A stretch of 64,000 nt of DNA from an uncultured Candidatus Saccharibacteria bacterium (GTDB lineage Bacteria; Patescibacteriota; Minisyncoccia; Phycocordibacterales; UBA918): contig CAZCWH010000001.1 in assembly GCA_964502345.1 (NCBI GenBank), positions 167 through 64,166 of the forward strand. The letters run 5' to 3'. The notes under the pieces are model-generated. The model saw nothing but the letters and a program-made list of their open reading frames with translations, searched no databases and was not told the DNA's origin. Positions within the stretch are counted from its first letter, which is position 1. Every line of letters begins with the position of its first letter. A program made the translations under genes and the position numbers. Positions 4,190 to 64,000 of the stretch are shown one piece after another.

Positions 4190-4220
4190 AAATTATACGC
4201 TCATTCTGGAGGAACAGGCC

Positions 4221-4400: not shown

Positions 4401-4425
4401 GAAACAAATTACAAGCATGAATGAG

Positions 4426-9954: not shown

Positions 9955-10009
9955 TTAATTCTAATACACTCGGGTGGATTTAGGGCGGTCATCTACTTGA
10001 TAACAGTTG

Positions 10010-10489
10010 TTACCCTTTAATAAACAACTCAAAATCATCTGGAGTCTCATCACTACCTGCTGGAATTAAATTAAGCTCAACAGGTCTTCCTTCAAAGGTT
10101 GCTCGCATACTCGCGCCCTGACTTGCTTGAAATTCTACTTTGAATCGTTGATTCGTCACTACTTGGGCACAGGAATCAGATGTATTAATTACATCAAAGT
10201 TAATAGCAACTTGTTCGGGCATAGACTCAGCTACCACACTGTCCCAATTGAGCAAATCACACGCAGTTGGCATAGCAACTTCTCCAACAAGTGTATGTGT
10301 ACCATCTATAAAGAAGTGTTTTGCATCAATTCTCGTAATAGAGTCATATGGACCTGCTACGGGTTCCTCGACAACTGGAGTCACCCCAGTATTCTCAATC
10401 TCAGACTTCTTCAGGTACGCAAACACAAACATACCAATAATAATGAGTATAAAGAGTACAATGGCAACTATAATTCCATTATTTTTCAT
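10010..10489 (-). CDS. hypothetical N-terminally anchored extracytoplasmic protein
   Basis: 159 aa with a TM at residues ~5-25 and two Cys. Confidence 0.45.
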   Translation of the reverse strand: MKNNGIIVAIVLFILIIIGMFVFAYLKKSEIENTGVTPVVEEPVAGPYDSITRIDAKHFFIDGTHTLVGEVAMPTACDLLNWDSVVAESMPEQVAINFDVINTSDSCAQVVTNQRFKVEFQASQGASMRATFEGRPVELNLIPAGSDETPDDFELFIKG

Positions 10490-10551
10490 AGAGGATAGAG
10501 CTAAGCTACTAATGTATACCTAGTATATCACTTATAACTTCAAGCGATATA

Positions 10552-37019: not shown

Positions 37020-40000
37020 CTAATCTCCAATTGCGTAAAACGTATTCGTCCCCTGGTGTGGATTCCCTGCAACTCCAAATGGAATTGCTATACCCCAGAA
37101 AAGTTGATCACTCACAGAAGGTGTCGTAGAAGTCGGCTTTGTGAGGTCAAGTTCATAATTCGTAGAACTTGCAGAAAGCTGGCTACAGAACGTACACGTG
37201 GTGTATGTAAATGTTGACGTTGCAAAGATTTGCTCATTAACAGGAATGAGTGAGGAATTACCATCAGTAAGGTCAGTTCCTGCTATCGCAATATCGAGAG
37301 CGTCATTTCCGATATTTTCAACCGTTGTTGTTGCATTATAAGAACCTGTGTCGTTATTAACTTCTAGAGCCCCATAGTTAATAGTGCTGTCTACTGTAAT
37401 TGCACGCAAAGTGAGTAGATCTATCGAAGGTGCTGTGCCTGTCGCAATAGCACCGCTTTGATCACTCACCGAAAGTTCTGCGCGCCATGTTTGACCAGCG
37501 TAGGTACCAACATCTGTTGGGTCTGCATGGTAATAGAAATCTGCCGAACACGTTACGTCACATGAACTTCCACTACAATTTTCAAACACGCACTGTGTTG
37601 GAGAAGCTATGTAGCAGTTATTTGGATCACTCGTACATGACGAGAGCACACTTGAGCGGAACATGGTAGTTGTTGCGAGATTCAAATCACCATACCCGTT
37701 GAGGTCCGAGACTGTCCCTGTTGCGTAAATTGTCGTTGTCGCACCAGGTGAAAGAGTGATGTCATTTCCACCATTAAGTGAGAGTGAGGTTACGACCGGT
37801 GTAAACACAAGACTCAATTCTGCAACCTTTGTGTATGCGTCGAGCTCTGCCCCTTCGTTTGTCACACGGAAACAATAGTTCGAATCACTCACGTTAATTG
37901 TGGGTGCGATTACATACTCAAGTTCTGTAAACTCACCTGAATCGACATCTAGGCTTCCTGTGTTATTGCTTGAATCTTCCACTACCTGTCCTGGTGTAAA
38001 CACACCCGAGCCTCCGAGGAGGTCAGTCGTACTTTCCAAGTCTGTAATATTGGAAGAAGACACCATACAAATATCACTCGTACCGCAACTTGCGACATTC
38101 GGAACCTCTACATAGTCATTGTAATCAACAGATTCACAGCTCGGTGCTGCACCCTTTGGTGCAAACTCAATCTCATAATTTTGCGCACTCACTGGAGTTC
38201 CGCTATTTTCTACGAGGAATCGAACGCGAGCAGTTTCCCCTATATCAATTCCAGAAGCAGGGGTATTACGAGCAGAAGTCCATGTTGCACCACCAGGAAC
38301 CTGTTCACCACCTAAGCTCGTAGTTGCAGCGGTTGCCATGAGCGGACGAGCTGAGTAAATATCCCATCCACCGTGGTATCCCCAAAGTGTAAATCCAACA
38401 CCTCCCGAGGTGTAGCTACTGTCCGTCGCACTGGTTGTTGCAACCACACTGCCATTTTTCGATAGCCGTACATATATTGAGTCATCGGTATCCCAATCAA
38501 CTTCAACTTCATACCAACCTGTACTGTACGTTACTGTTGTTGATGCAAGTACGGTACCACTCGTATCACGATGGGTTGCATTTTCAGAAATAGAGAGTCG
38601 ATCAACACCGAAAAGTTCGAGACATACCGCATAACTTGTCGCTCCTGTCTGAACACCAAAGTGGGTACATGATTCGTCCGCTGCTCCACTCACAGTATCA
38701 ATGTATTGGAGCCATCTAAGTGTCTGCCCTTGCGCTACCGTCACGCCAAGATTACGCATGTTCTGATCTGTCTTTGAATTGGTTTGATCAAACGCTTCAA
38801 GCCTATATGTTCGCTCATATGCGCTACTTCCCACCACACTAAAGTCTCCAGTGTCACCAGTGTACTCACTGATATTTCCATCTTCAAAGTTGTCCATGAA
38901 GTCAAACGTCGATGTTGCACTTCCATCACTCACCGTACCTTCCCCGTAGTACATGTATACAGTTGCTGTTGTTGACGTTGCAAGTGTTGGTACCTTGACC
39001 CACACAACAGCTTGTGTACTTGCAGTATATGATTCGGTGAAGTGTTCTACCGCAGTGAGCCCATCTTCTTCTGTAAATCTTAGATCATCAAAATCGGCCT
39101 GCATATCACTGTCATATGGCACGATGACCTTCACGGCGACGTCATGATAGGTTACTGGATCAGAATTTGTTACCGTGACACGCTTTCGCTTACTCCAGTC
39201 AAAGTCAAACCACTCTGAATTTGGTACGCCTTCCCCACCATCGTCGTTTCGGAATCGATACGCTGATTGCTCAATGAGTATACAGTTGCTATCGTCCCAT
39301 CGTATTGAACCACAGGCATCCCCACCATCAATATCGAATGCTTCACCATCAAAGTTTCCTGTATGTGACACAAATGTCCATGCACTCGGCGTAGAGCCAC
39401 TCAACTCTACGTTTGCTCCAGTGATAGCCGTTGTTGTTGCAAAGGCAACTCCAGTCACAAAGAGTCCTGCGTTGTAGTTGAGTGTTGTTGAGGAGAGCGT
39501 TATGAGTGAACCTCCATTTACCGCAAGCGTGAAGTTACCTTCGGTGAGTGAACTTACGGTCGTGAGACCACTTAATTTTAGTCCGTCAACATTCATATTT
39601 GCGAAGCTGTAGTAGAGTGCATTGAGTGTGCCTCCAAGAATATCAATCGCATAGGTACCGCTTCCTTGATTAGAAATAGTTGTATCAAATCCACTTGCTC
39701 CTACGATATTGAGTGATCCACCCTGAAGTGTCGTGGTTGCATTCGCCGCAATGTACACAAATACCTGTCTTGAACTTCCGCCAAGCGCGGTGCCATCGAA
39801 ATCAGTTGCATAGCTCCAGTAGTCAGCACCTGCGGTTCGCTCATAATCTCCATAGATGTAGAGGACACCACTTACACCTGCATGATCTTGTGAGTAAAAT
39901 GAACTTTCTGAATCAGTGATTGTAATCGTGCCCGTACTATCCCACGCACGAAGCTCCGTACTTGAACCAACGCGGATATTGTTGTAGGTATCTCCACCCG

Positions 40001-43000
40001 CACTCTTACTGTTAATTGTGTACGAACTGCCTGAATTGATAACGAGCGTACTACCCGTCCAAGTCGTTGGGGCACCACCTACAAGATTCGTAAAGACTCC
40101 ACCAACATATAGTCGTGTACTAGAGCTCTGCGTAAAGCTCGACGCTGAAGTTAGTGAGAAATTCCCTGTTGTTGTCGCATTAGCTGATATGGTCCATCCA
40201 CCACCGCCACTCGCAAGCGTCACATTGTGGAATAATGAATTGCCTGGATTAATAATTTCACCAGTATCACTCGAATTGAAGAGTATACTGCCTGATGCAT
40301 TATTGAATGAGCCTCCAGTATTTAGAAGTGATCCTCCAATAGACATGGTTCCAGTCGCCAAAGTCACTGCACCACTCTGGATAGTTAAACTACCAAGCAA
40401 AGCAACATTTGTATTAGTGAATGTATATGCCCCTCCTCCGGCAAAGGTTGTGCTGTAGAGATCGGAGGTACTTGCGGTCACAACGACTGCACCTGCACTA
40501 GTGAATCGGAGTTCCCCACTGCCGTGCACAAAGACATCACTATTTATAAAGTTACCGCCTATCGTCAAGGTACCCGTTGCACTGGTGAATGATCCATCAA
40601 CGATTCGTACATCTCCCGTCGTAGTTGCATACCCTCCTTGGAGTGAGAAACTACCCACCCCATTCACGACGAGGGTACCGAAACTGGAACTACGTGGGCG
40701 AATAGTCTCAGCACTTCCTGAGTTAAAGACCATTGTTCCACCGCTCGAGGTGAATGAGCCTCCGGTGACACTCAATGAACCTGTGACTGTCGTCGTCGCA
40801 GATGGAAGTGTTACAGTACCCTGTGCAACAGTAAAATCATTACCAATATCAAACGTGGTATTGGTAACAGTCCAGCTACCTGATCCGTTAAATGTGGCAT
40901 CATACAAACTACTCGAATTAGTATCGACGGTCCGTCCTGCTCCTGATGTTGTAAATACAAATGTAGAGGTCTCATCATCGATACTTGCTCCAGTGCCACT
41001 AATGAGGCTTCCTCCAATTGAGTGTGTCTCACTACCCGTCGCATCAAATACTGCATTTGTATACAATTCAAGCGTTCCATCGTATGCACTGCCACCCCCA
41101 CCACCCGTTACCGTGATGTTTCCGTTTGGTTCAAACTCTTTCCCTGTCCATACAATAAGCTTACGATTTGCAGGTAGGGTAAGTGTGTCCGGAGTACCAT
41201 CGACAGCAGTAAATGGAATATCAGCGTCATCACTTGAGTCCCAAAGTGACATATCAACAATTGAGAGTGGGTCGCTACTCTCATGACGAACAATCACACG
41301 ATTTTCATAGAGATCGAGACCAGTTATGTTTGAAACTGGGTCTTCAGTAACAGTTGCTGCCTTTTCAGTCTCACCATCAATATATACAACGAGTGAATCA
41401 TTCGGACTATAGAGCACTCCTGGAATTGAATAAAGGCCTGAACCATTACATGAGCCAGTATATGACGTAAGACCACCAACACGCAGATGAATGCTTTGAG
41501 TCGAACCATCACACACAGACACACCCATTGGAGTAGTACCCTCATCGCTATATACCGTTCCCGAAACAGTAATACTTGACGACGAATTATCCCATACGAT
41601 ATAACCTGGGTTACCATCTGGATCCACATCAAAATCTTCACCATCAATTGATCCTGCATGATTCGTAAATCTCCACGAACTAGCCGTAGTACCTGTTGCA
41701 GTGACGTTATACGCAGGAGTAATTCCTGTTGAAGTTGCAAAGTAATTATTTGTGAATGTTTTTGCAGGATTTTGTGTAATGACAGTCCCCCCTACGGTCA
41801 TTGCTGTACCGCTATTTTGAGAAACAGTGATGTCACCATACGCGAGTGTTACCACATTCGGTGTACCGCTCAAGGTAAGTCCAGATGCATCCATATCTTG
41901 CATGTCGTAATACGACCATGTTGTTGATGCGCTACCACCAATACGGAATGAGTACGTACCACTTCCCTGATTCTGAATTGTTGTAGAAGCGCTGTCTAAA
42001 CCGAGTACAGAAAGTCCTCCACCCGTATAAAGAACGCTACCACCACCTCGAATGTATACGTCGACGTTACGTGGTGTACCGCTGATATTTGTGCCATCAA
42101 AGTCTGTTGTATAGCTCCAGTAGTCAGTACCAGATGTTTTGCTGTATGCACCATATATATACAAGTCTCCATTCACTCCCCCATGATCTTGTGAGTACAG
42201 TGAACCATTTGCATGTGTATCATATGTACCCGCAGTACTATTCCACATACGTATTTGTGTCCCACTGCCGACACTCAGTTTCTCATAGGTGTCACTCGTC
42301 GTAGAGGCATTTATAGAGTAGCTTCCACTTCCATAGAAATGGAGCACGGAACTAGTCCATGTGGTGACTCCACCACCTTGTCCGTTCGTAAAGAGACCAC
42401 CCACCGCGAGTGATTGACCGCTTGCGAGCGTAAATGATCCTGCATTGGTGAGCGAAAATGCACCTGTCGTTGTTGCCGGTTCGGATACCGTAAATGCTCC
42501 CGAGCCATTAATCGTGAGATTCGCAAAAGGTGAGTTACCTGCAGCGATTGATGGAGTACCTGCACCATCAAAGGTAACTGTTCCACTACTTCCAGTATAA
42601 GTACCATTATTATCCCAACTGCCAGCAACAGTGAAGTTTGCACTTGCACTTCCTATGAGCGTTCCTGTGGAATCAATGGTGATGTTTCCATTTACATCAA
42701 ACGCCGGATCACTTGTATCCAGTGTAAACGTTGTTGCATTAGGACCTCCCACAGTGAGATTGTTGCTCACAATAATACCAAGACCTGTTCCGGTATATGT
42801 TGGTGAGCTTCCCTGTGCCTTCAAGTCGAGATTATAGTAAGTCGTTGAAATAACATTGGTTGCGCCAGCACCGCTATATCGCACCGTACTTGTATCCTCA
42901 AGGAAAGTACCGCTCTCAACAAATACATTTCCTGTTCCAGAAAGATTCCAGAGCGAACTTCCTGCATCAAGGTAATGTGCAGTATTTATTGTGAGTTTTC

Positions 43001-46000
43001 CGAGAATCGTAGTTGTTGCGTTACTTCCAGGTGTTGTGGTCCCAATGATACTTCCGTTACCAAGGACGAGGTTTGCGAGAGTCCATGCAGTTGTACCTCC
43101 AAGCGTATTTGTTTGGTAGATTGTTGTTGTACCACTTCCCATTGAGAGGACTCCATTTCCAGAAAGTGAGCCATTTACCACCGTGATATCAGCCGTTCCT
43201 GTGACCGTACCAAGCGTTACATCAATGTCCTGTAATGCTCTAATATCACCATTAATATTCCATCCACCACCAAGACCATTGAACTCAATTGTATTAAATG
43301 TAATCTCCTGAGTTCCAGTAGTGGTGATAGTCTTCCCCGTAGTCGTTGCATTCATAATGACCGTCGTTGAAGCACTCGCGAATGTTGCACCATCATCCAT
43401 AGTGAAACTTCCTCCAATTGTGTATGTAGATGAGGCAGATCCTGTAAAGATTGCATTATTGTCAATATGCAAAGATCCATCAAACGCGGTGGACGAGGCA
43501 TTCCCGTTAATGGTGATATTACCGTCTGGTGCAAACGTACTGCTCGAAGCAATGTGGAGCTCAGTATTAGCGAGCACGGTAAGTGTGCCTGTCGCGGCAA
43601 CAAACGAGATGTCACTATCGTTATCATTGTCATATGCTGACATCTTTAGAATGGTCATTGGCTCCGTATCCTCATGACGCGTAATAACTCTATTCTGATA
43701 GATATCAAGATCAGTGATATCTGAAATTGGTGTACGTGTTACTACTGTCCCCTTTGCACCACCGTTTGTATTGAGGTACACAGTTACCACCGGATCCCCC
43801 ACAACAACGACACCAGGAATACTAAATGAACCGTTTGCTGAGGCACAGGTACCTGTATACGAACTTCCACCTTGCACGACGATACGAATATTTGCTGTCA
43901 CATCATCACACACTGGATTTCCCATTCGGGTAACCCCGTCATCACTGTAGACGACACCAGAAACAGTAATGACAAGTGAGCTATCGTCCCATCTGACTGA
44001 ACCTGGGTCACCAGTATCATTATCAAATGCTTCACCATCAATATTTCCTGTTGAGTCTCGGAACCACCAGTACGATGTCGGTGTACCATCTGTCTGCGTT
44101 ACATTGGTCGCTGAAATTGCGGTCGTTGTTGAGAAATTGACTCGATATATTTGGAACCCTGGATTTGCGTTGATTGATGAGGAGGCAACAGTAAATCCAG
44201 TTCCTGCAGATATTCCTGGTTTTACAAAACCATCGTTCAGTGAAGATATGGTGCCTGCTCCTCTAAAAGTTACCCCTGCTGTCCCAAGATTACTAAATTC
44301 ATAATTATTGAATGTCGTCGCCGTTGAAGAAGCGATTACAACATACGTACCGCTTCCTTGATTAGCAACTGTTGTCGTAGCTGTCGAAGATCCAATCATT
44401 GAGAAAGTACTTCCAGAGAGTGTCGCACTCGTTCCTGAAGCAAGTCGTACATCAACTTGGCGTGAACTTCCACCAAGCGCTGTGCCATCAAAATCAGTTG
44501 CATAGCTCCAATGCTCAGTACCGGACGTTCGTGTATAGTCACCAAAAATATAGAGATCCCCGTCTACTGCAGAGTGATCCTGTGAGTAAATTGATGCTGT
44601 ATCGAGTGTTGAATATGTGTTTGCACTTGAATTCCACATGGAGATGTCAGTATCACCAACAACGAGAAGCGTGCCGTACACATCTCCCGCGTGACTCTTA
44701 CTATTAAGGGCACTGTCTCCACCAGTGAGTCGAAGCGTTGATCCTGTCCATGTTGTATTGCTGCCATTTGCTGCATGTGTAAATGTTCCACTTGCAGTAA
44801 GTGTCAGACCACTATTGAGCGTAAACTGGGACACATTGGTCAAAGACACTGCTACTGTTCCTGTTGCAGACTCGGTGACGGTGAAGTCTCCGGACGCACT
44901 ATTAAAATCAAGAGTTGAAAATGCTGAAGTACCAGCTGCAATAGTTTCACTGCCTCCAGAAGAATTGAATCTGACAGTGCCCCCATTTGCATCAAATATT
45001 GCATTATTGTCAAACGAACCACCTATCGACAGCACCCCTGTTGGGAATACAGCATCTCCACCGAGCTCAGAAATATAGTTTCCGAGAATCGTAGTATTCG
45101 TATCGCTAAATCTGCGTGAGCGAGAGCTCTCTTCTCCGCCAGCGGTGTAAAACGATGTCGAGGTTGCCATGTTGCGGTATTCTGCATCACGCCATGCATC
45201 AGCTCGAGTAGTTGTTGATACGCGCACCTCGTCAATTCGACCATCAAATGAAATAGGTGGTACACGATTCGGTCGAAGCCCAGATATGGTGAAGTTTGCA
45301 GTTGGGTCTGAATTGCCGGCTGTAAAACTACCGCGAGCAACACCGTTTACGCGGGTCGTGACAGTACTATTTCTCACTGCATTAATTGAGACATGGTACC
45401 AATTTCCTGCAACTAGATCAGCACCAGTTGTCACATTACACGTCGTCACGGTAGTAAATGCACGCACGCACACTTCATCAGGAGCCGGTGTGCCACCAAC
45501 TGATGTCCAGTCATAAACTCCCGCTGTTGAAACTCCGTACAAACTATACCCATAGGTATTAGTCTCCTGAGGTGCAGCTCCTGCGAGCGTATCAGGATTA
45601 AACCACATTGATACGTTGTACTGCGTCTGCCCATTGAGGAAGCTGCCTGTGTATTGAATCGGTGTTGTATCAAAGGATTGTGCTTTCTTTACACGCCCAG
45701 TTGAAACCTCGAGCGGGTTGTTCGAAACGGGGCTACCCGCTGTGTCTGTCTTAACACCAGTGATTGTACGAACACTATTCTGTACCACGCTCGTCGTGAG
45801 ATCATTCATGTGACTGACGAGTGTATAGCCATTACTCCATACACTTCGTGCTCCATATGGAGAAGTTGATGCGTAGGCACTCGCACCACTGTTACCATAG
45901 TAGATATAGAATGTCGTATCAGTCGTTGAAGAGACTGAAGTCGCTCTAAAGTAGAGTTCACCATCAGTGCCACTCGTGTCAATTGATACGAGTTCGATTG

Positions 46001-49000
46001 GTACTTCAGTCACTCCGTCACTCTCCGTGACACGGATATCACTACCATCGGTCTTTACGGTACTGAAGAATGCGGATGAGAGGTCGTCGAGATTGACGTA
46101 GACTGGGAAATTCGTGAGTCCTGCATCTATTTGGGAGGCTTGGATGGTGATCGGAATACGTCGAGTCCAAGAATCATTGTACCAAGAGGTCGCGATACCG
46201 CCTCGCGTACGTACATTATTAAATGAAGAACCATTTGTACTCACTGTCTTAGAGTTTTGTACAACAAAGATTACTTCGCCCGAATTATGTGTGAAGGCAC
46301 CAGTACCAGTGGTAGTAAAATCACCACTTACCGTAAGCGTACCTGATGGGAGTGTCACGGTACCAGCCTGGATACGGAATGTGTTGGATGTTGTTGCATT
46401 ACTTTCTGTAAATGCCCATGAACCAGAACCAGTGAAGACGAGATTATAAAAAGCATTAAGGAATGTTCCGCCACTCTGCGTAATCGAACGACCACCAGCA
46501 GTACTACTCATGACGACTGTCCCGTTATTGTGAGCAAACACACCCCCTGTATTAAGGAAGGATCCTGCGACTGTTGTCGTTGCTGTTGGTAACGTTACCG
46601 TCCCTGTTGCAATCGTGAGATGGTTACTTACCGTGAGTGTTGGAGCAGTGAATGACCATGAACCACCAACCCCAGAGAAGGTTAAGTTATAGAATGCACT
46701 CGAGCCGGTCGTAATGATTCTGTTCGTTGTTGTTGCAATGAAGGAAACAGTTCCAGTTCGAGCAGTAAAGGTATTATTGTTGATCCAATCTTCGTATACG
46801 GAAGCACTGAATCCTGTGATTGAAGCATCAAAGGCATCGTTTGCTCCAATAGTCATTGATTGCATGGTCACATTACTTCCCAGGACAAGTGTCTTTGTCG
46901 TACCATCAACAAGCACACGTCCAACATTTTGTTTAACAGCATTATTATCTGTCCATGTCGATGGGTTAATTCCATCAAATGTAGTCGTCCCCATACCGGT
47001 CCAATAACCACTTGCACCTATCGTGAGGTTGCCAGCGACGAAAATAGATGTGGTTCCTCGAGCAAGTGTTCCAAACGACACTCCTAAGTTACCATCCACA
47101 TCAAGTGTCGAAAGCGTATTCCATGTTGCTGTTCCACTCGTCTCACCAAAGGTTACGTTATTGAATCCACTAGTCACTGATCCAGTCTCATCTATTGATT
47201 CAGTTGATGAGGTGGCAGTGAATATGACCGTCGAGCCAGTCATGGTCGTTGTCGCATTATTGTCCCATGAACCACTCACTCGAATACTGTTACTACCTGC
47301 AGTAAAGGTGCCATAATTCCTAAGATCATGTGTAGTGACATCAGCTCCAGTTCCTGGTGCATACGTATTTCGTGTAAGTACAACAATACTTGCATCAGTA
47401 CAACCAGTATCAGCACACATAGTGAGATCATTCCCTGCATTCACATCAAAGAAGAGATCTTCATCATTCGTGTAATCGTACATACCAATCTGTGTATTCG
47501 TAGCAGTCACAAAGTCATTTGAACCAATGGTGAGATGACGTTTTTGAAGACGCATACCTGTCACGTCAGGCGTACCATCAAATACGGTGACCCCTACAGC
47601 TTCATCCACGTCATTCGCCCCACTTATAAATGTAGTAATTACATCCCCACTGAAGAGTGGGATATTCTCAATCTCCCATGTGCCGTCTCCAAGAATTGCA
47701 CCCGTCGCGCCAGACTGAAGTACTCCATTTACTGCTACTGCAACAGTACCCGCTGTGGTAGATGATACCCCGTCATACTCAAGCGCAGTACCCGATACCG
47801 TGAAGCCAGCTATCCATGTGACTGTCCAATCATCAAGTGTTGGACAATTTGCTCCACTACAATTGAGATTTCCAACAATCCGTATCTGGTTGTATGTTGT
47901 TGTATTAAGCGCTTCTAGATCAATAGGTGATGTGGTAAATCCTGTTGAATTCCCCGGAAGTGCACTATCAGGAATGAGTCCCCATACGCCAAGTCCATTA
48001 AGGAACTCGATCTGATATCGCACTTCACTTCCGCCTGGCTCAGAATCTCGCCATGACAATTCTCCCCACCCTGGTCCACTACCATCATCAAAATCTATAG
48101 TATCTGATTTAATACTACCCGAACTCAATACTGCTGGATTAACTGCGAATTGGAATCCTGTTGCACTATCGGCGACGCTCAAGCCAACAGTTGCTGCTCC
48201 TGTTCCTCCGGCACTTGCCACCAATTGAGTTCCCCATACTCCAGACGCATTAGCAGTTCCGCCTCCTGCCTGTATTTCATCACTCTCAGTCCAGCCTGTT
48301 CCTGAAACAGTGAATGGGTATACATCTCCACCGTCTCCACTTAAGAGATAGAATGCCAACGACTGGTCTTCTGTCGTCGTAATACCAGTAACTGCATGAC
48401 TGGCAGCACTTCCTCCATTATAGTCAGCACCAATAACATTTATAGGATCCGTGGTACTTGCTCCGGTTACTCTAATGTAGAATCCCCAGAAATCATCCGA
48501 TGATTGTGCGGGAACATTAATTGTTGTCCCCTCTGAACCATTTGCAACACGATAGAATGCTGCTGCATGAGCATCTGATACAGTGTCATTTCCTGATTCA
48601 TTAATGAGTGTGAACCCAGACGGCTTGAGTGTCGTATCATTCCACTGCGCTGTTGCAGAGTTATCATCACTTCCTACCAAAATAAGGAGGAGGTCACCTG
48701 AGACCACTCCGGATGGCTTCGTGAGTGTAAGCGAACTGCCAGGAATTGCTGTATTTGATGTCCAGCCACTTTCAACCACAATCCCTCCACCGATTCCTAC
48801 ACTATTTGTCGCTGCATCAACTCCTGAGAGTGTACCCTTATCAAACTGAAGTCCAAGAGTTTGGAACCAAGTTGACACTTGCACTGGTTCACCTGACGTT
48901 GCAGTCGTAAAACTCCATGGCTCTGACCATGTTGAAAAATTATCGCTTCCGCTTGGATCTTTAGCGCGAGCACGCCACCAGTACGTTGTACTTGCAGAAA

Positions 49001-52000
49001 GTGCGTCTCCTGGTTGAATTTTATACGAAATCGTGTCCCCTGAATCAAATGGGTTTGTGTCCCCACCATTAACAAGATTCACGAATCCTGTTGGTGAAGT
49101 GCTTGAGTTTCTTGTAGTGCTTCCCGTAGCGAAATTGTAATCTGTTGACCACGATACTTCGTACTCAATGTCGTCATTCTCTGGGTCAGAAGAAGAGAAG
49201 CCGAACGTTGGAGATGTTGTTGCAAATTTTTCATTATCAAATGGAGCACTGAGCGTTGGTACTTCTATACTTTCTGCCCATGCAAGTGTCCAATCAAGAA
49301 GTGTTGGCGCTCCAGTTCTAAAGTTTGCTCGAATGCGTATGACGTCGTACAGTGTGACATCAAGCCCACTAAGGTCAACGGGTGATGAGTCGTATCCAGC
49401 CGCATTTCCAGAGAGCGCACTGTCTGGAATCAAGAACCAGTCCCCATCATTTTCGTATTCAATATGGTAGAGAATATCATTTGCAGAACCTGTCTCGTTA
49501 AATGAAAGCTCCCCCCACACATTACCAATTGTTGCGTCGCTAAAATCAATCGCTGTTGATGTAGTCGTCGCGACCGTAGATCCACTTGCAAAAGCGACGA
49601 GATCGCTCGCAGTTGCTTCAGTACCATCATGAGTGTTTGTTTCAAACTGCTCCTCAGTTGTTTGGTACCACGTAGAGACAGTGAGTGATGTGTCTACTGT
49701 AAAACTCTGTGGAGTAGACCAGTCTCCATATGCAGCAGATCCACTCGCATCCTTAGAACGCACTCGCCACCAATACGTGACCCCATTGCTGAGTGACGAC
49801 GGAATTGTGTAACGCATTCTTGCATAATTATTAAACGGTGTTTTGTCTGAAGGAGTAGCAATGTTAAGGAAATCATCCAAATTAGTCTCTGAATCAGTAT
49901 CTATCACTGTGGAACTGAAAGCATAGTCATTATCAATCTGAATCTGATAATCAACTTCATCACCATTTTCATCGTAGCCAATAAACTCAAACCATGGTGA
50001 TGTGCTTGCAAGCTTTTCATTATCAAATGGCGCAAACATGTCTTCGATCAGTGGAGAAGCGTTTGTTACAAGTGTCGGAAACTGGGTGTAGGTATCAAGT
50101 TCTGTCCCGTCTGCATTAACCATTCTGAAACAGTACTGTGCTCCCGGTGTTGCATCATTATTTTGTAAAGCAAAATCCCACTCGGCAGCTTCACCAACAT
50201 TAATAGCATTTGGATTGGGTACTGTTGGATTTCCTTCCTCATAGGTTTCGAGTACATCTGAGTCAGTGAGCAATAGTGAGGTGAGCTCATACCCATCAGC
50301 GCTTCCACCCATCGATTCATCCGAAACGGTATAGAAATCCGTAGAGGTCGCCATATTGCGATACTCAGCGTCTCGCCATGCATCAGCTCGAGTCGTTGTC
50401 GATACACGGACCTCATCAATTCGTCCATCAAAACCGATGTTTCGTTGGGGTGTACCACGTAGATCACCGATAGTGAAGTTTGCACCCACGTTGTTCTCAC
50501 TACCATTAATATACGATAGTCGCTGTACTCCATTGACTCGAACAGTAGTGGTACCTCCGTCAATTGCATTCACCGATGTGTGGTACCAGTTACCTGTAGC
50601 TAGCCCTGCGCCACTTGTTGGCACACATGTGGTGGCTGTATCTTCATACGCACAGAGACGTAGCTCAGTGAGATTACCTGTACCCCCTGCAGTAAGCCAT
50701 TGATATGGTGCGGCTGTTGGTGAAATACCGTAGAGTGACAATCCATAGGTGCCCAAGTCTCCACCCCCGGTGAGTGCATCGGGATTAAACCAGAGTGAGA
50801 CAGCGTATTGGGTTGCATTTGTGAGCATGGTACCGGTGTACTGTATGAGATCAAGGCTAAAGTCTTGAGCCTCTGAAACAGGACCTGTACTTACTTCTGC
50901 AGGATTTCCAGCACTCGTCTTTACTCCATTGAGCGTCCCGGCACTATTCTCGACGACACTCGTCGTGAGATCATTCATATGGCTCACGAGAATGTATCCA
51001 TTACTCCATACACTTCGTGCTCCATATGGAGAAGTTGATGCGTAGGCACTCGCACCACTGTTACCATAGTAGATATAGAATGTCGTATCAGTCGTTGAAG
51101 AGACTGAAGTCGCTCTAAAGTAGAGTTCACCATCAGTGCCACTCGTGTCAATTGATACGAGTTCGATTGGTACTTCAGTCACTCCGTCACTCTCCGTGAC
51201 ACGGATATCACTACCATCGGTCTTTACGGTACTGAAGAATGCGGATGAGAGGTCGTCGAGATTGACGTAGACTGGGAAATTCGTGAGTCCTGCATCTATT
51301 TGGGAGGCTTGGATGGTGATGCGAGTCCTACTACTCCAATTTTCGTCGTACCAATCATCCATCGCAATACCATTTTCATATCCGCGCCAGAGCGCTGTAG
51401 TACTTGCAGCATCACCCACGTCGTACCATGTGAGATCAACGCTACATGTATCCCCTTCAGCATACTGTAAATTGAAGAGCTCAGAATCTGCACTTGCATT
51501 TGTACTCGAACCAACAAGTGACATGCGAAGCCGGAGTACATCAGCATTGAGTACTGCACTCGATGAGTCAATCGCTTCATTTTCATTTAGATCTACGCCT
51601 CCAACCGGCCATATGTCCGTTGGTGTGGTTGAAGCAGCATTTACATACCATTGGTAATCTTGCTGTACAAATTGGGGCGAGAGCACCCAACTCACGGTCC
51701 AATCTTCTAGTATTGGCGAGGTACTCGCACTGTCTTGCTGTAACTCCATCTGAAGACAAATACGATTGTAAGTCGTTGTAGATAGTGTTGAGATATCAAG
51801 TGGGCTCGTATCACTGGTAAAGCCTGTACTGTTTCCAGGAAGCGCTCCGTCAGTGATGATGGTGTCGCACACAGTAGTACTCGAGTAATACAAGCGCATG
51901 CGCGTCTCAGAACCTGCTGGCTCAGTGACGCTCCAACTCACCTCTCCCCATGTGCTTTGATTTGGCACTGAATCATGATCAACTTCAGTTGACATTATGG

Positions 52001-55000
52001 TTCCTTGGCTACCGGTACCTGCAACCTTTAAACTGATACCACTCATTGAATCATGCGTACCAGCGGCACTCGCGGTATGTCCGGAGGCTTCTGTCCCCGC
52101 CGTCGTGACGTTCCGATTATTGATATGGAATCCAAGACCCCAGTTAGTACCCGGTACATACGTTGCCGCAACAGACGATGGACTCGGCCAGGTTGCATTT
52201 GACCATGTGGTTACTGTACGTACACCAGCACCAGCTGTTGAACGTGCGAGATTAATGACCTCAATTGCTTGATCTCCTTGATTGATAGTGAGACCAGCTG
52301 AGAATGGACCTACTGTGGCATTTGCAGTGGCGCCACTGAAGTAGTTGCGTGCATCAGTCACTACAGTTGTTTGATCAACTCCTGCAAAAACAGCTGCATA
52401 TACGTAATTGTAATAGGAGGTTCCACCAGTAATGGTCACATCGAGGTCGTCCCCCGAGGCAGCAGCAATTCCCGCATCATTGAGGTAGAAAATGTACGTA
52501 TGATTTCGGTTGGTAGCATTTGTCGCATCCCCCACAGCAAGGGTCATAGCCTGACCGCCGTACGTCACACTCACGGACTGTGTCCCTACTGTGGTTCGAG
52601 TAGAACCAATTGCAACTACGAGCATTCGGTCAGTGCCTGCTGCTATTGCATAGCTCGCATTAACTGTTCCTGCTGGGTACGCAGTACTTGCGTACTGTTG
52701 CAGCCAGTCTGCTTGAGTCGTGATGACCGTTGAAGGAGTTCCGATGGTCTCAATCTCAACACTGTCTCCACTTGTCGTTGCATTTGAAAGTGTGGCTTCA
52801 TCAAACTGTGCATCAGTGGTTTGGTACCATTCAGGTACTCCTATAAACGTATTAACCGACATACTACGTGCAGTTGAAGTAGCACTCCATGTGTTGGTAC
52901 CAGAAGGATCTCGTGCGCGTACTGCCCACCAATAGGTTGTGCCTACCGTAAGCTCATCTCCAGCCTGGAGTGCATAGGTTGTCGTCGCCCCTGAGGCAAA
53001 TGTTGATGCACTCCATCCTGCATCAGTCGGATAATTTGAAGACTGCTTCGTCAAGATTGGCGAAGTGAGATTTGAACTTGTACTTACAATAAGCTCAAAT
53101 TCCATTGCGTCACCCTCAAAGTCAGTCGCAGCAAAACCTCCAAGTGTCGGTCGTGTTGTCGTGGCACGAAGATTATTAAACGCAGGATAAAGCGCGAGAT
53201 TTGGCGTATACGGTATCTGATTTGGAACCGCCCAGTCCACAGTCCAATCATTAAGCGACGGTGAGGTGGTACCAAAACCTAGATCGAAGGTCATCCGCAG
53301 ACAGATGCGATTATAGGTCGTCGTTGAAAGTGTATTGATGAACAACTCTGACGCCGTAACATCAAATCCAGTACTATTTCCTGGAAGTGCCGAGTCAGGA
53401 AGTATGGTGTCGCAGGCAAGCGTACTCGTATAGAACAACTGGAGTCGTGTATCGGTATGCGTTGGCTCAGTCGTATTCCAAGTCACTACTCCCCAGTCAC
53501 TCTGTCCGGATACAGAGTCAAAATCTACTTCAGGCGACATTACGGTACCTTTCACGTGTGAAGGATTAATAGCGAACTGGAATCCAGATGAGCTATCGTT
53601 CACAGAGAATGCAACCGTGGCAGCACCAGTTGCGCCCGCAGTCACCATCGAACGTGTTCCCCACGTACCAGCAGATCCATTTCCTCCAGCCCCTACCTGA
53701 ACTTCTGCACTCTCACTCCATCCAGTTCCTGAAACACTAAATGGGTATGTATCATCCCCATCACCAGAGATGACGTAGAATGCGAGCGTATTATTGACCG
53801 TTGTATTGACGCTTGTAACGGCGTGACTGACAGCTCCTGCATCGTCATTATCTGCTCCGACTACATTGATTGGATTTGTTGTTGATGCTCCCGTTACTCG
53901 AATATAGTATCCCCAATAATCGGCTGAGATTTGAGCAGGAACACTCGTTGTCGCTCCTTCTGTTCCGTCTGCAACTCGATAAAATGCAGCGGTGTGTGTA
54001 TCGGATGTGGTGTTTCCCGATTCATTGATGAGCGTGAATCCTGTTGGTTTAAGTGTCGTGTTATTCCACTGCGCGTTTGCAGTATTGTCATCATTACCCA
54101 CGATGATCATCAAAAGGTCCCCGATTTCTACATTTGATGGCTTCGTGAGTACGAGTGATGCACCTGGAGATGTGGTAGCTACTCTCCAGCCACTCACAAC
54201 GGTCGGGACAGCAGTACTTGTTGTCGCGAGCTGTGCAGTACCGGAGGTCGAAGCTGTATTTGTGAGTGTTCCTCTCTCAAATTGGCTACCTTCAGTCTGG
54301 AACCACGTCGATGGATCAATACCAGTCGTATACGTAAAACTTCGGACACTACTCCATTCACCCCAAATATTACCAACTGTTTCTTTCGCTCGAACACGCC
54401 AATAGTACGTCACTCCATTTGTAAGCGCAGTCTGTATGGTAAAGCGCATCTGTTCATTTTCGGTATACGGATGTGTATCGGTCGATGAGGCGGTATTGCT
54501 AAAACAATTCGGTGTACATCCGCTTTCATTGTCTGATGTCCGATCTCCAACAGGTGAAGTACCTACATCAACATCATCATCCCATTGGAACTGGTATACC
54601 AAGGTATCACTACCGTCAGGATCATTTGCAGTAAATGTGAAGGATGGTGTTGAAGTACCAGTCTGTTCATTATCAAAAAGCGCAATAGTAGTAGGTGCCT
54701 CAGGCACAGCACCTCCTACATCTCGCTTTGCAAACACTGCAGTTCTGAATGGAGGTATCGTTGCTACCGCTGAGAAGTTTGTGACGTCGACTTGATGCGT
54801 ATGTGCATTAGTCGTGACTGTATTATCAATAGTCACAAGGTCACGAGTCTGTGTACCACTTGGCCCCTGCGAGGTTACGGTAATGTTACTGTGAGTCGTC
54901 GTTGCAGCTCCGCCAGTGCCTCCATAAGTCGTGCTCGCTTTTACAAAGCGATTTTCAAATGGATCAGATGGTCCTGAGAGATCACCCCACCCGAGCGGTG

Positions 55001-58000
55001 CTTCATCTGTCCACATTGCAATCATTGCATCGGTTGGAGATGACGTTGCATTTAGTTTTCCGAGTACTGCTTCTCGATATGGTGGTTCATGGTTGACTGT
55101 ACCAGTGACAGAACTCACGATGTGTGTGTGGTTAGCAGACGCAGTATTTACCAAATTGTCACCTGCCGCTGCGGTAGTAAAGTTTCCTGTCGCCACAAGA
55201 CTTCCGGTAATACTGTGCGTGTGTGTATTAGAACTACTTGCGGTTCCTACCGTCGTTGTTGCTGCACCTCGTATATACCTTCCATCTTGTGCGGAATACT
55301 GTGTCCAACCAGTTGGAACGGCCGCATCAAAAATCGCAATGGCTCCCGCTGGGATTGTTGGTGGTGAACCAGCAGAATTGTACTGAATCACTACTAATTC
55401 CCGATAGGCGGGAAGATTGTTATCAGTTGAAATTGTGGGAGTATATGTGTGTGCGTGAGCAACTGTAGGCACATTCGTAGCACCTCCACCACCAGAGTTT
55501 ATTGACGTACTTGAAGCAGAGGCGGTAACTCCACCCGTTGCAGTGTGTGTGTGTGTCGAGACCCCACCATTAGTACCTGCAGTAGAAGAACCCTGAATGA
55601 ATCGTTGATAGAACACGTCCCCTGGCAGACACGATACACAGGTCCATCCTGATGGGATGTTTGTCCCGTCCCAGTACAAGAGCATATTTCCTGTCGCATC
55701 TGAAGCAATCTGCCACTGTCGGTGTTCAACAAATACAATATTTGTGGATGTAGCAACAACAAGAGGGGCGTCCCCAGTCGCAACTTCATCAAGAACAACG
55801 GTGCTGGTAGCCGTTTCTACATCTTCTTCCATTTCAACACCAGTATCTTCCGGGATTATTTCTTCTTCTAACAAAGGTACAGATTCATCTTCCACCTCAG
55901 TAGTAAACTCTGTTGTTTCAGCTTGTGTGAATAAGAACTTACCGATAACTTTCTTAAAGACCGAGACATACGATGATTCGTCACCCTCAGTCTGAAGAGA
56001 TGATTCGGTTGGTTCGGGAGCTACTTCCTCTTCTGGAGCCTCAGCTTCAGACTCAGTCGAAGGAACAGGTTCTGGTTCTACAGGGGTTTGCTCAGGTGTG
56101 ATTTCACCTGTCTCGCTCTCAACTGTAGACGAATCATCTGTTGGCACAGGCTCTGATGTTTCAGGAGTTACTGGCTCTACCGGAGACTCGTCTACCACTG
56201 GAGTGGATGATGCTTCAGGCTCGATAGGACTCTGTGTATCAGGTTCCATAGAACCTGATACATCAACCGGACCCTGACCTTCCGTGCCCTCCTCTATGAC
56301 TTCTGGTGACTGCACTTCCTCCCCAGTAACGGCAGCAACTGGCTCAATTTCATTTGAAATAAGTTGAGCGGGGCCAAGCTCATAGAGATATGGTGATATA
56401 TCGGGAGCATCAAATTCATACGAGACCGTAAGGCTCGAACTACTCGCCATATCCACCTTCCAGACGAGTTCAGTGTAGCTTTCCTGTGGTCTGATCTCTG
56501 CATCAGTATTAAATATTGCAAAACTTTTTGGTACACGCTCGACTATCTCACCAGTAAATGATCGACGCAGTGCATGGACGGTGAGTTCCATTGCGTATGG
56601 TGACGGTGGATAAATTCGAGTTGGCCCACTGCGCTCAATCACAATAGGTTGATTGCTTGCTACAAAGAACGTCTCTAGCGTATGTGAAATTACACTTCCA
56701 GACTCATCGACTCGCTCAAGGTACATTTCGTATTCACCTGGAACTCCTGTTACAAATTGGCTGCTGTAGTCCGGAACATCAATGACATTGTTTCCATTAC
56801 AGTAACCCGAAGGGAGAACTTGTGTGCTCGATATAAAGCCATTTGGGTCAGAAATGTATAGATTGAGATTTGCGTCACAGAGTGTATTTCCATTTGAGGT
56901 AAGCGCACCCATTGAAATATCTGCAACATCACCACTTTCATAGGTCGTTTGATTGCTGTTGATTGAGAGAAGTCCCCACTGGAATTCAAATGTATCAGTC
57001 GAGACGAGTCCTCCTTCATTGATTTCGAGCTCAACGGTGTAGATACCCGGGAAAAGCTGTTCTTTATCAGCCTCTGTCAACACAACTGAAATGAGCCCCT
57101 CTTGTGTGACCGTTACCTCAGGTGAGATCTCAACTTCCTCCCCTTCATTGTGGACAAATTCCACAGACTCTACTGTTGCCAGATCTCGTCCAAAGAAACT
57201 CCTAAACGCCTGCACGAGGAAATTACGTTGTGAGTTGTACCGGAGATTAAATTGTGGCAATTCCTCACGAAGGAAATCAAGTTTCTCACTCAAGAGTTCC
57301 ATACTCACAGGGCCATCCAAGTGCTTCAACATTTCATCAGATGAAAATCGTTCCTTGAGAAGTTCCTTATCAAATACGACCGTCCCAACCTCAAGCCACG
57401 CAGCATCTATGTAGAGAGACTGAAGTTGTTTCACGTCTCCATCAAATGAAATCGTGATGACAAGTTGCTTGAGAAGCTCTGGGTCTGTTATTGATGGGAG
57501 TGGAATGAGGTAATAGCCACCATTAATCGCATTCGATATTTCAGCATCAAGTAATATGCTTCCCGCATCTCGAGAGAATTCTCCAAACGAATATTCTACA
57601 GAAACGAACCCGGGCTTCTGTCCATTACTCATGTCATATTGACCAGCGAGCGAGAGACGAAGTTGTAAATTATTAATAAACTGTCCGGAAGCGAGCCCTG
57701 GGATACCAAAATTACTCAAAGTAATCTGTGGAGCAGCATTTGTTTCTTGTATAGGTTGAGCAACTGTTTGTCCACCAGTAGGTGCAGGTTCTTCGTCCTC
57801 GATTGAAGAGGTCGCTTCTTCAGCTGCTGGCAATATTTCTTCAGTCTCAGTTACGACTTCATCAGAAATAGTTTCTTCGGGTATTGAACTACTGGTCTCT
57901 TCCTCTGCAATAGGGATCTCTTCAGATGTTAATTCCTCCTCATTCAAAGGCTCGGAAGATTCCTCGTTAGTTTCCAAGATAAGTTCAGTCGTTTCAGCTT

Positions 58001-58849: not shown

Positions 58850-60379
58850 TTACTTTAGAATTTTATTGACGTCACTTATTTCCTTTTCTATAAGCGTCTC
58901 AGAGACTTCGAGTGCCTGATTGAGGCCTTCTACAGCTTCACGCTCCTTCTTTGATAGTCGTTGTTTCTTAGTAATGAGGTTAATCTGATCGTAAATTTCG
59001 TCACGAAGTGCAGAGAATATCTTTTCCATCTGGTCCTGAATTTCCTTCGTCTCTTTACGAAGTTTGTGCTCCTTCTGGTCATGCTGCTTTCGTAGATAAA
59101 TCATATACCCTGTCTGGCAGAAGAAAAGGATTATGAGGAGCATAATTATGAGATTCTTTCCCTTGAAGAAATCCCAAATTGAACTTTCATCAATAACCGC
59201 TGATGGAGGAAGCCATCCGGCAGTAATAAGGACAGGGACAGTTGAACGCATCTTATTGCCTGCAAAGTCATATGCTACAACCTCAACAGTATATGTTCCG
59301 TCCTCGAGCTTATTGAGAAGGTAACCAAGTTTCGCCTCATCAGGCGTTACTTCAATCATCTCTTGGTCGGCGATGGTCATTTCGTATCGCTCAATACCTG
59401 AAGTTTCATCTTTTGCTTCAAAGGTGAGCATCGGGAATGATGTAGGTGAGTTGCCAGCACGCACATTTATCGTAAATGGCTGCGGAGGTTGCGTATCAAT
59501 CTTCAACATTCGATGCAGAATACCTCCCCACCCAACCTGATTCTTAAATTGAAGCGTCAAGTACTGCACTCCTTCAAAAAGTACTTCATCATTAGTTGTA
59601 AACTCTTCAATCGGAGGGTCATATCGGGTGACTGGTGTAAAGTCTGATGACGTTGCAATATCGAGCGCTACTTCAGTAACATCAAATGGAAGCGTCCAGG
59701 TAAAAATACCAGTCTTGGTTGAATACCATAATTCAGGATCTAAAAATGTGGTTGAGCCTGCCTCTGGAGCGCGGGGTGGATCACCAAATGTAATAGTTGC
59801 ATCGTCAGATGGCTCTTCTGCAACAGGCTCTTCTTCGGATGGTGGAGGTGTTACCGGTGCGGTTGCCGCGGTTACTGTATAGCTTGCTGGATTTCCACGT
59901 GTATAGACATCAGTGCCGAGGCCGTCAGCCGCAAGCACTGAAGCTGACGCAACAGTGGCTGCGCCTGTTCCTTCCGCAAGTGTTTTAAAGGTTACAGCAA
60001 TCAGGGTTGACCGTGCAGTGAACGGTGTCGGACTTCCTCCTCCAAAGTCAATGGTACCAGCACTGTTTGAAAAGGTTGGTTCTGTTGTCCATAGTGAAAA
60101 TACTGAACCAGTTTTTGAAACACTTACCACCGAGAGCTTTGTATTATCAAATGACAATTTCGCTTCAACCGCATTGACACTTTTACCCTGTGGATCAACC
60201 TGCACCGTCACCGTGAACGATTGTCCAATTGCATAACTGCCCGTTGATGGCGAAAAGTTGATTTCCGCCGCATGTGCAAACGTCGCTGCACCAAAAAAAC
60301 CGAGTGCAAGCACCGTGAGGTAAAATATTTTTCTAAATTGATTTAAATGAACTGAAAGAACCATAAACGTAAGACACAT
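58850..60379 (-). CDS. cohesin-domain bitopic membrane protein with a cytoplasmic coiled-coil tail
   Basis: signal peptide. Cohesin-like AEINFSPSTGSYAIGQSFTVTVQVDPQGKSVNAVEAKLSFDNTKLSVVSVS...SLW. TM (IIMLLIILFFCQTGYMIY) plus a ~100-aa charged helical tail. The likely start is ATG at 60379 with an AAGGAG SD. The track start 60382 is GTG. Confidence 0.7.
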   Translation of the reverse strand: MCLTFMVLSVHLNQFRKIFYLTVLALGFFGAATFAHAAEINFSPSTGSYAIGQSFTVTVQVDPQGKSVNAVEAKLSFDNTKLSVVSVSKTGSVFSLWTTEPTFSNSAGTIDFGGGSPTPFTARSTLIAVTFKTLAEGTGAATVASASVLAADGLGTDVYTRGNPASYTVTAATAPVTPPPSEEEPVAEEPSDDATITFGDPPRAPEAGSTTFLDPELWYSTKTGIFTWTLPFDVTEVALDIATSSDFTPVTRYDPPIEEFTTNDEVLFEGVQYLTLQFKNQVGWGGILHRMLKIDTQPPQPFTINVRAGNSPTSFPMLTFEAKDETSGIERYEMTIADQEMIEVTPDEAKLGYLLNKLEDGTYTVEVVAYDFAGNKMRSTVPVLITAGWLPPSAVIDESSIWDFFKGKNLIIMLLIILFFCQTGYMIYLRKQHDQKEHKLRKETKEIQDQMEKIFSALRDEIYDQINLITKKQRLSKKEREAVEGLNQALEVSETLIEKEISDVNKILK

Positions 60380-60840
60380 CACTGCTCCTTTGTACGTGCT
60401 CGACTTATCTTTAAACGAACCTTCTCCTTTTCTTCAGGTCGCAGAAGAGGAAGGATAAGGACCAGTACTCCATTCTTAATCTTTGCCTCTGCACCCTCAA
60501 TATCAACACTTTCTGGTAAGATGATTCGTCTATAAAAATCGCCCCAGACGCATTCTTCAGTAAAGAAAGCACCTTCAGGCTTTTTCTTTGGGAATGCCAA
60601 ATGTTCTGGGCGCAACCGCTTACCCTCAATAAGCACAACATCGGCATCACCCTCAATAGACACATGAATATCGGTGAGCTCAGCCCCGGCAGCTTGTGCA
60701 TATACGGTAATAAGATCAGTCGTCTGAAATACATCGACATCGAGTTGCACAATCTTATCAAGTGCCGTTTCTTCTTCGCTCGATTGCAGACGTTGTTCAG
60801 TTCGAATACCTCTTCCCTTGAGTCTTTGCAAAAAGGACAT
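60379..60840 (-). CDS. Hsp20/alpha-crystallin family small heat-shock protein
   Basis: 153 aa with an alpha-crystallin domain (LDVDVFQTTDLITVYAQAAGAE...IEGKRL...GDFYRRIILPESVDIEGAEAKIKNGVLVLILP). Its stop TGA overlaps the ATG of the downstream cohesin gene as TGATG. Confidence 0.85.
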   Translation of the reverse strand: MSFLQRLKGRGIRTEQRLQSSEEETALDKIVQLDVDVFQTTDLITVYAQAAGAELTDIHVSIEGDADVVLIEGKRLRPEHLAFPKKKPEGAFFTEECVWGDFYRRIILPESVDIEGAEAKIKNGVLVLILPLLRPEEKEKVRLKISRARTKEQ

Positions 60841-63042: not shown

Positions 63043-63342
63043 GGTACTTGCTTATTGTACCGTACGTAACCACTGATTATTGACTCCCGGTGCGTATAAA
63101 TCCATCCTCAGTGCTCATTTGTATAGAACATGCTTCCCTGAGCAAAGTTCGAGATAAAAGAAGCATTAGGAAAAGCATTATCGCTAATATTCTTATATTT
63201 CAGTTATTTTGAGACGTCTAGCCCTTTCATCATGAACGATGAAAGGGAGACGGAAGTTCGCAATAGTCGCTACTTCTTACAGAAGCTGTTTAGGTTGTTG
63301 CAAGTTTGTCTCCAGAGTCACAAACTTGCTAACAACCTCTTG

Positions 63343-63364: not shown

Positions 63365-63504
63365 ACTCGTTGCTCACTTTTTATAAAACCTGATTTCCTG
63401 AGCAAAGTTCGAGGCAAAACTAAGTTTTTGATTAAGCCCTACTTGGCGTAGGGTGAGATGAAAAACTGACGTTTTAACGAGGAAATTTGCCAGGAAAGCA
63501 GGTT

Positions 63505-64000
63505 TTATTTCACACATCTAAAGCCGATACCTATACTCGCAGACGTAGGGAGTGTATCGGCATGAATTGAATAGGTACCTGCATCTTTACCACTATCGTA
63601 GTAACCGCCACGGATCATACCGTAAGCACCTGTCTCATTAACCCAGAAATAGTCTTCCCCAAAAAGTGACTGGGGGATATCAGTTGAAACGATAGCGACT
63701 CCTCCAACATCGACTTGTGCAACATACCCTTCCTGAGGCAGTAATCGTTCTTTATATTTTCCATCGATTATGTCATCACTTACCCACTCCCACACATTAC
63801 CCACAAAATCATATGCACCATGTGGAGAAACACATTCTGCATAGGCACCTGTTTTTGAAACTTGTTTAGAATTTACATTACATGCTGCTTCTACAGTGGT
63901 CATACCAAGACTGAGTTGATACCACTCCTCTGCGGTCGGTAAGCGCTTACCAGCCCGTGCACACATCTGCATCGCCTGATCACGAGTGACAAACCCCCAT
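63505..64000 (-). CDS. formylglycine-generating-enzyme (FGE-sulfatase/SUMF1) domain protein, 5' end beyond window
   Basis: ...WGFVTRDQAMQMCARAGKRLPTAEEWYQLS...GNVWEWVSD...RGG matches conserved FGE-sulfatase motifs. The frame stays open to the last base of the window. Confidence 0.75.
   Translation of the reverse strand, partial: WGFVTRDQAMQMCARAGKRLPTAEEWYQLSLGMTTVEAACNVNSKQVSKTGAYAECVSPHGAYDFVGNVWEWVSDDIIDGKYKERLLPQEGYVAQVDVGGVAIVSTDIPQSLFGEDYFWVNETGAYGMIRGGYYDSGKDAGTYSIHADTLPTSASIGIGFRCVK

Follow-up and report, generated by a model that had tools for sequence, protein, structure and literature searches.

Probable recent gene conversion between two DUF2341-LamG cassettes of a giant gene in an uncultured Saccharibacteria bacterium

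The stretch of DNA analyzed here (the window, 64 kb from an uncultured Candidatus Saccharibacteria bacterium) contains a giant gene of 21.7 kb on the minus strand, at 37020..58766, whose open reading frame (ORF) is 7,248 amino acids (aa) as listed. Two paralogous cassettes of this gene, each with a DUF2341 domain followed by a LamG domain, share an exact direct repeat of 323 nucleotides (nt), such that positions 45829-46151 and 50998-51320 are identical. We interpret this identity as a recent nonreciprocal homologous-recombination tract, i.e., a gene conversion between the two cassettes, and we assign this reading a probability of roughly 0.8. A sequence-only reading of this DNA had proposed an identical core of ~320 bp at 45831-46150 and 51000-51320, in cassettes ~5.15 kb apart within one gene. 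Comparison within the window confirmed this core, with coordinates that were right to within two bases, and set the offset between the copies at 5,169 nt, which is 1,723 codons in the same frame, with both copies inside the single ORF.

The identical core and its flanks

Copy A of the core (50998..51320, minus strand) consists of the codons for aa 2483-2589 plus 2 nt and encodes the DUF2341 beta-sandwich of the upstream cassette, the probable recipient. Copy B (45829..46151, minus strand; aa 4206-4312) lies in the DUF2341 of the downstream cassette, the probable donor. All 107 full codons are identical between the copies, and third-position identity is therefore 1.0. The homologous block around the core extends over ~1.05 kb (aa 2468-2817 versus aa 4192-4545), and its 975 aligned nt contain 267 mismatches, none of which falls inside the core. 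When the match/mismatch string of the block was permuted 20,000 times, the longest run obtained was 47 nt, and at the identity seen outside the core (0.593) the chance of a 323-nt run is P ~1e-73. The tract spans essentially the whole DUF2341 beta-sandwich without a synonymous difference, while synonymous sites are saturated in the remainder of the cassette.

From the core outward, identity drops in steps, from 100% to 80% to ~53%, with a separate island at 83 to 85%. The flanks had been described as ~80% identical. This figure applies only to an 81-nt flank and the ~90-nt island, and the block outside the core is 59% identical overall. The 81-nt segment is the C-terminal flank of copy A (50917..50997, minus strand), which is ~80% identical to 45748-45828 and includes a 20-nt identical run. 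Beyond it, the LamG body of the upstream cassette (aa 2608-2776) is 53% identical to cassette B in nt and 52% in aa, with a third-position identity of 0.33, which represents saturation. The island (50341..50432, minus strand; aa ~2780-2809) is identical to cassette B in protein and 83 to 85% identical in nt to 45157-45248, every nt difference being synonymous. It may be an older conversion tract or may instead reflect strong constraint. At the other end of the core, the edge is abrupt (51320/46151) and falls at ATC ACC ATC, the conserved I-T-I motif, where B-type homology ends.

Constraint on the protein does not account for the identity of the core. Across aa 2777-2812, the protein is 94% identical to cassette B, but the third codon positions are just 44% identical. 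Because so similar a protein segment differs at about half of its third positions, a conserved protein sequence fails to explain a core in which no third position differs.

Both cassettes match Pfam DUF2341 above the gathering score, as the domain labels of the sequence-only reading implied. Cassette B (45132..46193, minus strand; aa 4192-4545) combines DUF2341 with a Laminin_G_3/ConA-like lectin domain and scores above the gathering threshold for both PF10102 (DUF2341; 29.3 bits) and PF13385 (Laminin_G_3; 42.5 bits). Cassette A reaches the gathering score for DUF2341 only (E = 1.3e-6); its LamG has no Pfam match at E <= 0.01 and is recognized through its 52% identity to cassette B and 66% identity to a cassette of a relative described below. 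An AlphaFold2 model of cassette B, with a mean predicted local distance difference test (pLDDT) score of 86.8, places a beta-sandwich ahead of a jelly roll. In this model, the core corresponds to residues ~15-121 (block pLDDT of 93 to 98), which take in nearly all of the DUF2341 sandwich and the linker that leads to the first LamG strand. Foldseek, run with the cassette B model only, returned AbnA domain 4, the clostridial-neurotoxin Hc lectin-like domain, and the NanA CBM40 at E ~1e-8. The predicted jelly roll thus resembles carbohydrate-binding or lectin-like domains with a ConA-like fold.

Orthologous genes and the mosaic upstream cassette

With cassette B as the query, a scan of genomes and a scan of metagenomes yielded four orthologous giant genes, in loci L018, L019, L001, and L015. 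These orthologs were taken from the DNA loci, the first protein search having listed only proteins of up to ~620 aa, and each is open without interruption for at least 6,387 aa and truncated by the end of its locus. The gene in L018 is 75 to 85% identical in aa to the giant gene and is colinear with it from aa ~890 to the C terminus with almost no indels, and those in L019, L001, and L015 are ~50 to 55% identical. Homologs of the cassettes carry Pfam DUF2341 and Laminin_G_3, and those that have names are from Patescibacteria; the phylum placement used here, Patescibacteria or candidate phyla radiation (CPR), is based on homolog and contig names. In all four orthologs, a cassette is present at the A position and another at the B position, and the two are of very different types: A-type and B-type LamG domains are 15 to 24% identical, and within each locus the A and B DUF2341 domains are 45 to 54% identical.

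The giant gene of the window differs at the A position. Its alignment with L018 is high up to ...DDWYDENWS.R (aa ~2481), collapses over aa 2483-~2812, and resumes at ...ES.G..DG.ELT.LLLTDSDVL. This stretch, with L018 orthology lost inside it and resuming on both sides, is a B-type patch of ~990 nt in the A position (50331..51320, minus strand; aa 2483-~2812), and its C-terminal edge is fuzzy (aa 2810-2817). The N-terminal flank of cassette A (51321..51389, minus strand; aa 2460-2482) is A-type and orthologous to the A cassette of L018 (77% aa identity versus 37% to cassette B), and homology to cassette B ends there. Because four of four orthologs keep an A-type cassette at this position, the upstream cassette is a derived mosaic replacement and not a drifted old tandem copy. 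The earlier description of this region as a diverged duplication of 1.1 kb with flanks of ~80% identity is therefore wrong. Judging from these alignments, the B-type patch appears to have entered the A position after the split from the L018 lineage.

The upstream cassette is itself composed of parts with different affinities. Its surroundings on either side are A-type, its core is B-type, and its LamG body is akin to the B cassette of L019. The core is 89% identical in aa and 77% in nt to the B cassette of L018 (L018B) versus just 62% in aa to that of L019 (L019B). The LamG body of cassette A, which we term "B2" type (50439..50945, minus strand; aa 2608-2776), is closest to L019B, the B cassette of a distant relative, at 66% aa identity and with indels in common, compared to 52% with cassette B of the window and 48% with L018B. 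The LamG body of cassette B is 83% identical in aa to L018B, and cassette B as a whole is 85.5% identical. The same pattern was seen in neighbor-joining trees with 200 bootstraps. In the core tree, the two window cassettes were paired in 100% of the replicates and were then joined by L018B (94.5%), and in the LamG-body tree, cassette A was paired with L019B and cassette B was paired with L018B, each at 100%. The incongruence of the two trees fits gene conversion, in which paralogs cluster within a genome in the tract only. The protein-identical island is bracketed by L019B-like residues, RGTPQRNI.F before it and DFY.VS after it.

The L019 B cassette (10001-11023 of that locus) shows a difference of its own. 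Its DUF2341 is 57 to 64% identical to those of the other B cassettes, versus 61 to 73% among those, and its LamG is 44 to 50% identical, versus 66 to 74%. By these comparisons, DUF2341 and LamG seem to have separate histories in L019, too.

The GC content of the cassette A LamG body (0.379, versus 0.356 +/- 0.041 for the gene) and its GC at third codon positions are within the gene's normal range, and composition therefore favors neither horizontal transfer nor an unsampled paralog. No closer donor turned up at E <= 1e-10 when proteins were searched with the LamG part of cassette A. We consider it a possible but doubtful scenario that this LamG came from a distantly related, L019-like Patescibacteria lineage and replaced a nonhomologous A-type lectin module, after which the DUF2341 was rehomogenized to the resident copy. 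If this were true, giant CPR surface proteins would swap "variable" lectin modules between positions and lineages, with conversion keeping the "constant" DUF2341 scaffold compatible, and such swapping could change host or ligand specificity in episymbionts.

Timing, direction, and alternative explanations

The core of cassette B differs from its L018 ortholog at 23% of nt, a Jukes-Cantor distance of 0.275. With 0 differences in 323 nt, the 95% upper bound on the distance between the two cores is 0.0093, which amounts to ~3.4% of the divergence between the window and L018; the estimate is rough and supposes equal rates. The conversion would therefore be recent, within the last ~3 to 4% of the time since the L018 split. 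This bound and the 100% pairing of the two cores in the core tree make recent gene conversion, which the sequence-only reading had already suggested, the best-supported reading. The interval between the copies (46152-50997; 4.8 kb) is intact and colinear with L018, so no crossover took place. Given its similarity to L018B, the core appears to belong natively to the B lineage; transfer from B into A is thus the likelier direction, and we regard it as probable from the sequence relationships.

These observations can be accommodated in two steps. An earlier exchange, after the L018 split, would have replaced the ancestral A-type cassette with B-type sequence and so provided homology between the cassettes. 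A recent RecA-type event, either a break in A repaired from B or heteroduplex formation with mismatch correction, could then have copied the DUF2341 segment. Heteroduplex or branch migration would have halted at the N-terminal limit of homology, leaving the abrupt edge, and on the C-terminal side, identity would decay across the 80% stretch that contains the 20-nt identical run. The net outcome would be a pair of lectin-like modules whose "constant" DUF2341 is identical and whose "variable" LamG differs. As a by-product, the event would have left a perfect 323-nt direct repeat with the potential for an in-frame 1,723-aa deletion or duplication.

Several points weigh against this reading. Beyond the N-terminal edge of the tract, the two copies are not homologous today, the longest identical run there being 7 nt; classical conversion does not call for such an edge, and we infer that it marks the boundary of the older patch. 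The direction would be unprovable if the earlier DUF2341 of cassette A was already of the B1 type. The sample of relatives is limited to four. Given its ordinary composition and the lack of a closer donor in our search, the L019-like LamG could have come either by horizontal transfer or from an unsampled paralog. Finally, exact-protein look-ups of four neighboring genes and a 50-nt core probe in viral contigs found no reads or second assembly, which bears on the question of an assembly artifact taken up below.

Rather than the site of a single accident, DUF2341 could be a repeatedly converted hot spot or part of an antigenic-variation-like system, in which homogenization and variation are ongoing, selected, or programmed. 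The stepwise identity could then mean several tracts of different age, the LamG and DUF2341 histories differ in both the window and L019, and near-identical patches recur in other giant genes. However, the 45 to 54% identity of A and B DUF2341 domains within L018, L019, L001, and L015 shows no concerted evolution there, and neither silent donor cassettes nor a recombinase or retroelement were found in the 64 kb. In addition, the ~80% segments are short and have third-position identities of 0.44 to 0.53, near the level expected from protein constraint alone. We therefore judge a programmed or continuing process to be unlikely.

The patches in other giant genes were seen in two metagenome-assembled genomes (MAGs). 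In a "Ca. Saccharibacteria" MAG (L009), positions 3053-6162 carry near-identical patches of 318 nt at 98% and 189 nt at 96% in a repeat other than DUF2341. In a Bryobacterales MAG (L016), 1.2 kb at 92% is shared between 10105-11311 and 18571-19788, the DUF2341-LamG cassettes of two adjacent genes. Because such patches occur in both, sporadic conversion looks general in giant genes of this kind.

Known variation systems were also considered and rejected. A diversity-generating retroelement (DGR) does not fit, given that no reverse transcriptase was present among the window ORFs scanned, that the repeats are identical, and that the flank mismatches have no adenine bias. Silent-cassette antigenic variation does not fit either, as there are only three DUF2341 copies in the 64 kb, all within the giant ORF, and no donor array. 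No invertase was found among the window ORFs scanned. A candidate template repeat/variable repeat pair at 63118-63159 and 63378-63419, a 42-nt motif (…CTCGAACTTTGCTCAGG…) occurring twice, 260 nt apart and 83% identical, was discarded; it is noncoding, and the similarity stops at the motif. Near it, at 63505-63972 (minus strand), is a short ORF whose C-terminal part matches an FGE-sulfatase/C-type-lectin-like domain; the locus is cut by the end of the window. In CPR genomes, DGR target proteins often have this fold.

The identity could also have been produced by assembly or polishing, whether through repeat collapse, a chimeric strain join, or short-read polishing that homogenized two similar copies. 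The window is probably from a metagenomic assembly, and a repeat of 323 nt is longer than common k-mers and reads. Against this stand the four distinct junctions, each of which would have required read support, and the lack of any long k-mer shared between the A-type flank and the core. The ORF also remains open across 7,248 aa, and the overall layout of the gene, in order and spacing, recurs almost without indels in the independently assembled L018. Polishing, for its part, homogenizes only copies that are already at least ~95% alike, which would itself imply recent conversion. An artifact thus appears quite improbable. Least credible of all is nucleotide-level purifying selection, for example, on an embedded RNA or regulatory element, that keeps the cores identical without recombination: nothing beyond the identity itself speaks for it, the orthologous core of L018B differs at 23% of nt and 53% of third positions and so shows no cross-species nucleotide constraint, the window gave no Rfam match, and the tract, which lies in frame, corresponds to a protein domain.

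The giant gene, its surroundings, and known systems

The start of the giant gene may be further downstream than listed. A Sec-type signal-peptide-like segment, RSKRK-VLFACVAFCVLLSFTLLSSF-DASVAQA, read by eye from the translation and not by a predictor, lies at 58485..58580 (minus strand; aa 63-94). There is no ATG, GTG, or TTG just upstream of this segment, which begins at aa ~63 of the longest ORF, and the protein therefore has a long N-terminal extension or a noncanonical start. Above Pfam thresholds, the 7,248 aa contain only three DUF2341 domains, one Laminin_G_3 domain, and one Ig-like domain. The third DUF2341 (38871..39095, minus strand; aa 6558-6632; Pfam E ~1e-16) is diverged, at ~26% aa identity to the other two, and is uninvolved in the conversion.

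Self-comparison of the protein, by blastp of overlapping 400-aa chunks, showed further repeats. A second duplication had been reported at ~80% identity between ~48000-48900 and ~53500-54300. Paralogous segments do exist there and are larger than described, X1 at 53232..54791 (minus strand; aa 1326-1845) and X2 at 47814..49364 (minus strand; aa 3135-3651), but they are 49% identical in aa and 57% in nt (68% in the best 594-nt blastn stretch), with a longest identical run of 15 nt, and are older. The corresponding pair in L018 is 50% identical. Because the pair is equally diverged in L018 and its identical runs do not exceed 15 nt, X1 and X2 represent an ancient duplication without sign of conversion. 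In the C-terminal third of the protein (39267-45110; aa 4553-6500) there are three units of ~800 aa that are mutually 40 to 47% identical.

The neighboring genes are cellular and include UvrB, tRNA-guanine transglycosylase, an ABC/FtsX transporter, and HSP20, together with several cohesin- and dockerin-domain proteins. Cohesin domains occur in the products of 58850-60382, 23660-25405, and 22256-22993, and dockerin domains occur in those of 61171-63042 and 28538-29662, which suggests a cohesin-dockerin surface-assembly system in a small-genome bacterium. The giant gene product is probably a secreted surface protein, and it is reasonable to infer that the cassettes are its surface lectin-like modules. 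The label of adhesin, which the sequence-only reading had used, draws its whole support from the signal-like N-terminal segment, the lectin-like folds, and the cohesin and dockerin neighbors, and we would call the protein a putative adhesin.

Elsewhere in the window, a second very large ORF (12916-20331, minus strand; 2,471 aa) has almost no Pfam matches, with one sub-threshold BNR-like match. A 112-nt unit is repeated 2.1 times at 97% identity at 6239-6468, in the intergenic region flanked by the genes for an FKBP-type isomerase (5643-6188) and a PGA_cap protein (6548-7576), and this repeat matched no Rfam family. All plausible genes in the 64 kb lie on the minus strand, the cumulative GC skew falls monotonically, and no tRNA genes were found in the window.

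Giant CPR genes, thought to mediate attachment to host cells, are almost unstudied, and the gene described here shows them as mosaics whose modules have separate histories. There are practical consequences as well. Within a gene of 21.7 kb, a perfect 323-nt repeat can cause short-read assemblies to break or to be misresolved, and variants with the in-frame 1,723-aa deletion may exist in populations. The sequence-only reading had likewise proposed a hazard for assembly and a route to length variation, and both proposals are reasonable.

DGRs are common in CPR, and the case described here resembles them in having two similar repeats tied to a lectin-fold surface protein. Unlike in a DGR, there is no reverse transcriptase in the window, and the repeats are identical, 323 nt long, and both coding. 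Concerted evolution of repeat domains is known in Gram-positive surface proteins. In Helicobacter pylori, cagY undergoes intragenic recombination among direct repeats (PMC2194252). The giant gene shares with both the presence of direct repeats in one large surface-protein gene, homologous recombination, in-frame products, and homogenized repeats. It differs from them in having two dispersed copies 5.2 kb apart in place of a dense tandem array and a noncrossover patch without a change in length.

Antigenic variation by segmental gene conversion, as in pilE/pilS, vlsE, msp2, and tprK (reviewed in PMC4534519), likewise copies a short nonreciprocal tract between paralogous surface-protein cassettes. 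Those systems use silent donor arrays and convert a variable region between conserved flanks, whereas in the giant gene the two copies belong to the same ORF and are both expressed, and it is the conserved domain, not the variable LamG, that was converted. In the yeast FLO genes, ectopic recombination between cell-surface paralogs gives rise to chimeric alleles (PMC3512402). These chimeras are similar in that an adhesin-like module is a mosaic from paralogous sources, but they are eukaryotic and intergenic, and the present case is intragenic and bacterial, with one source possibly foreign. Giant Patescibacteria proteins containing DUF2341 or FhaB have been assigned a proposed role in adhesion or host interaction, by inference only (PMC11809585). 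As far as that account treats them, they are like the protein described here in exceeding 4,000 aa, carrying DUF2341 domains, and being encoded in CPR genomes; unlike the present analysis, its treatment counts such proteins and describes no cassette exchange or conversion between modules. The mechanism itself is textbook, being the familiar intragenic or ectopic recombination of repeat-rich surface-protein genes, and the giant gene would be a clear case, open to dating, of gene conversion and cassette replacement at the scale of domains in a giant surface-protein gene of an uncultured Patescibacteria bacterium.

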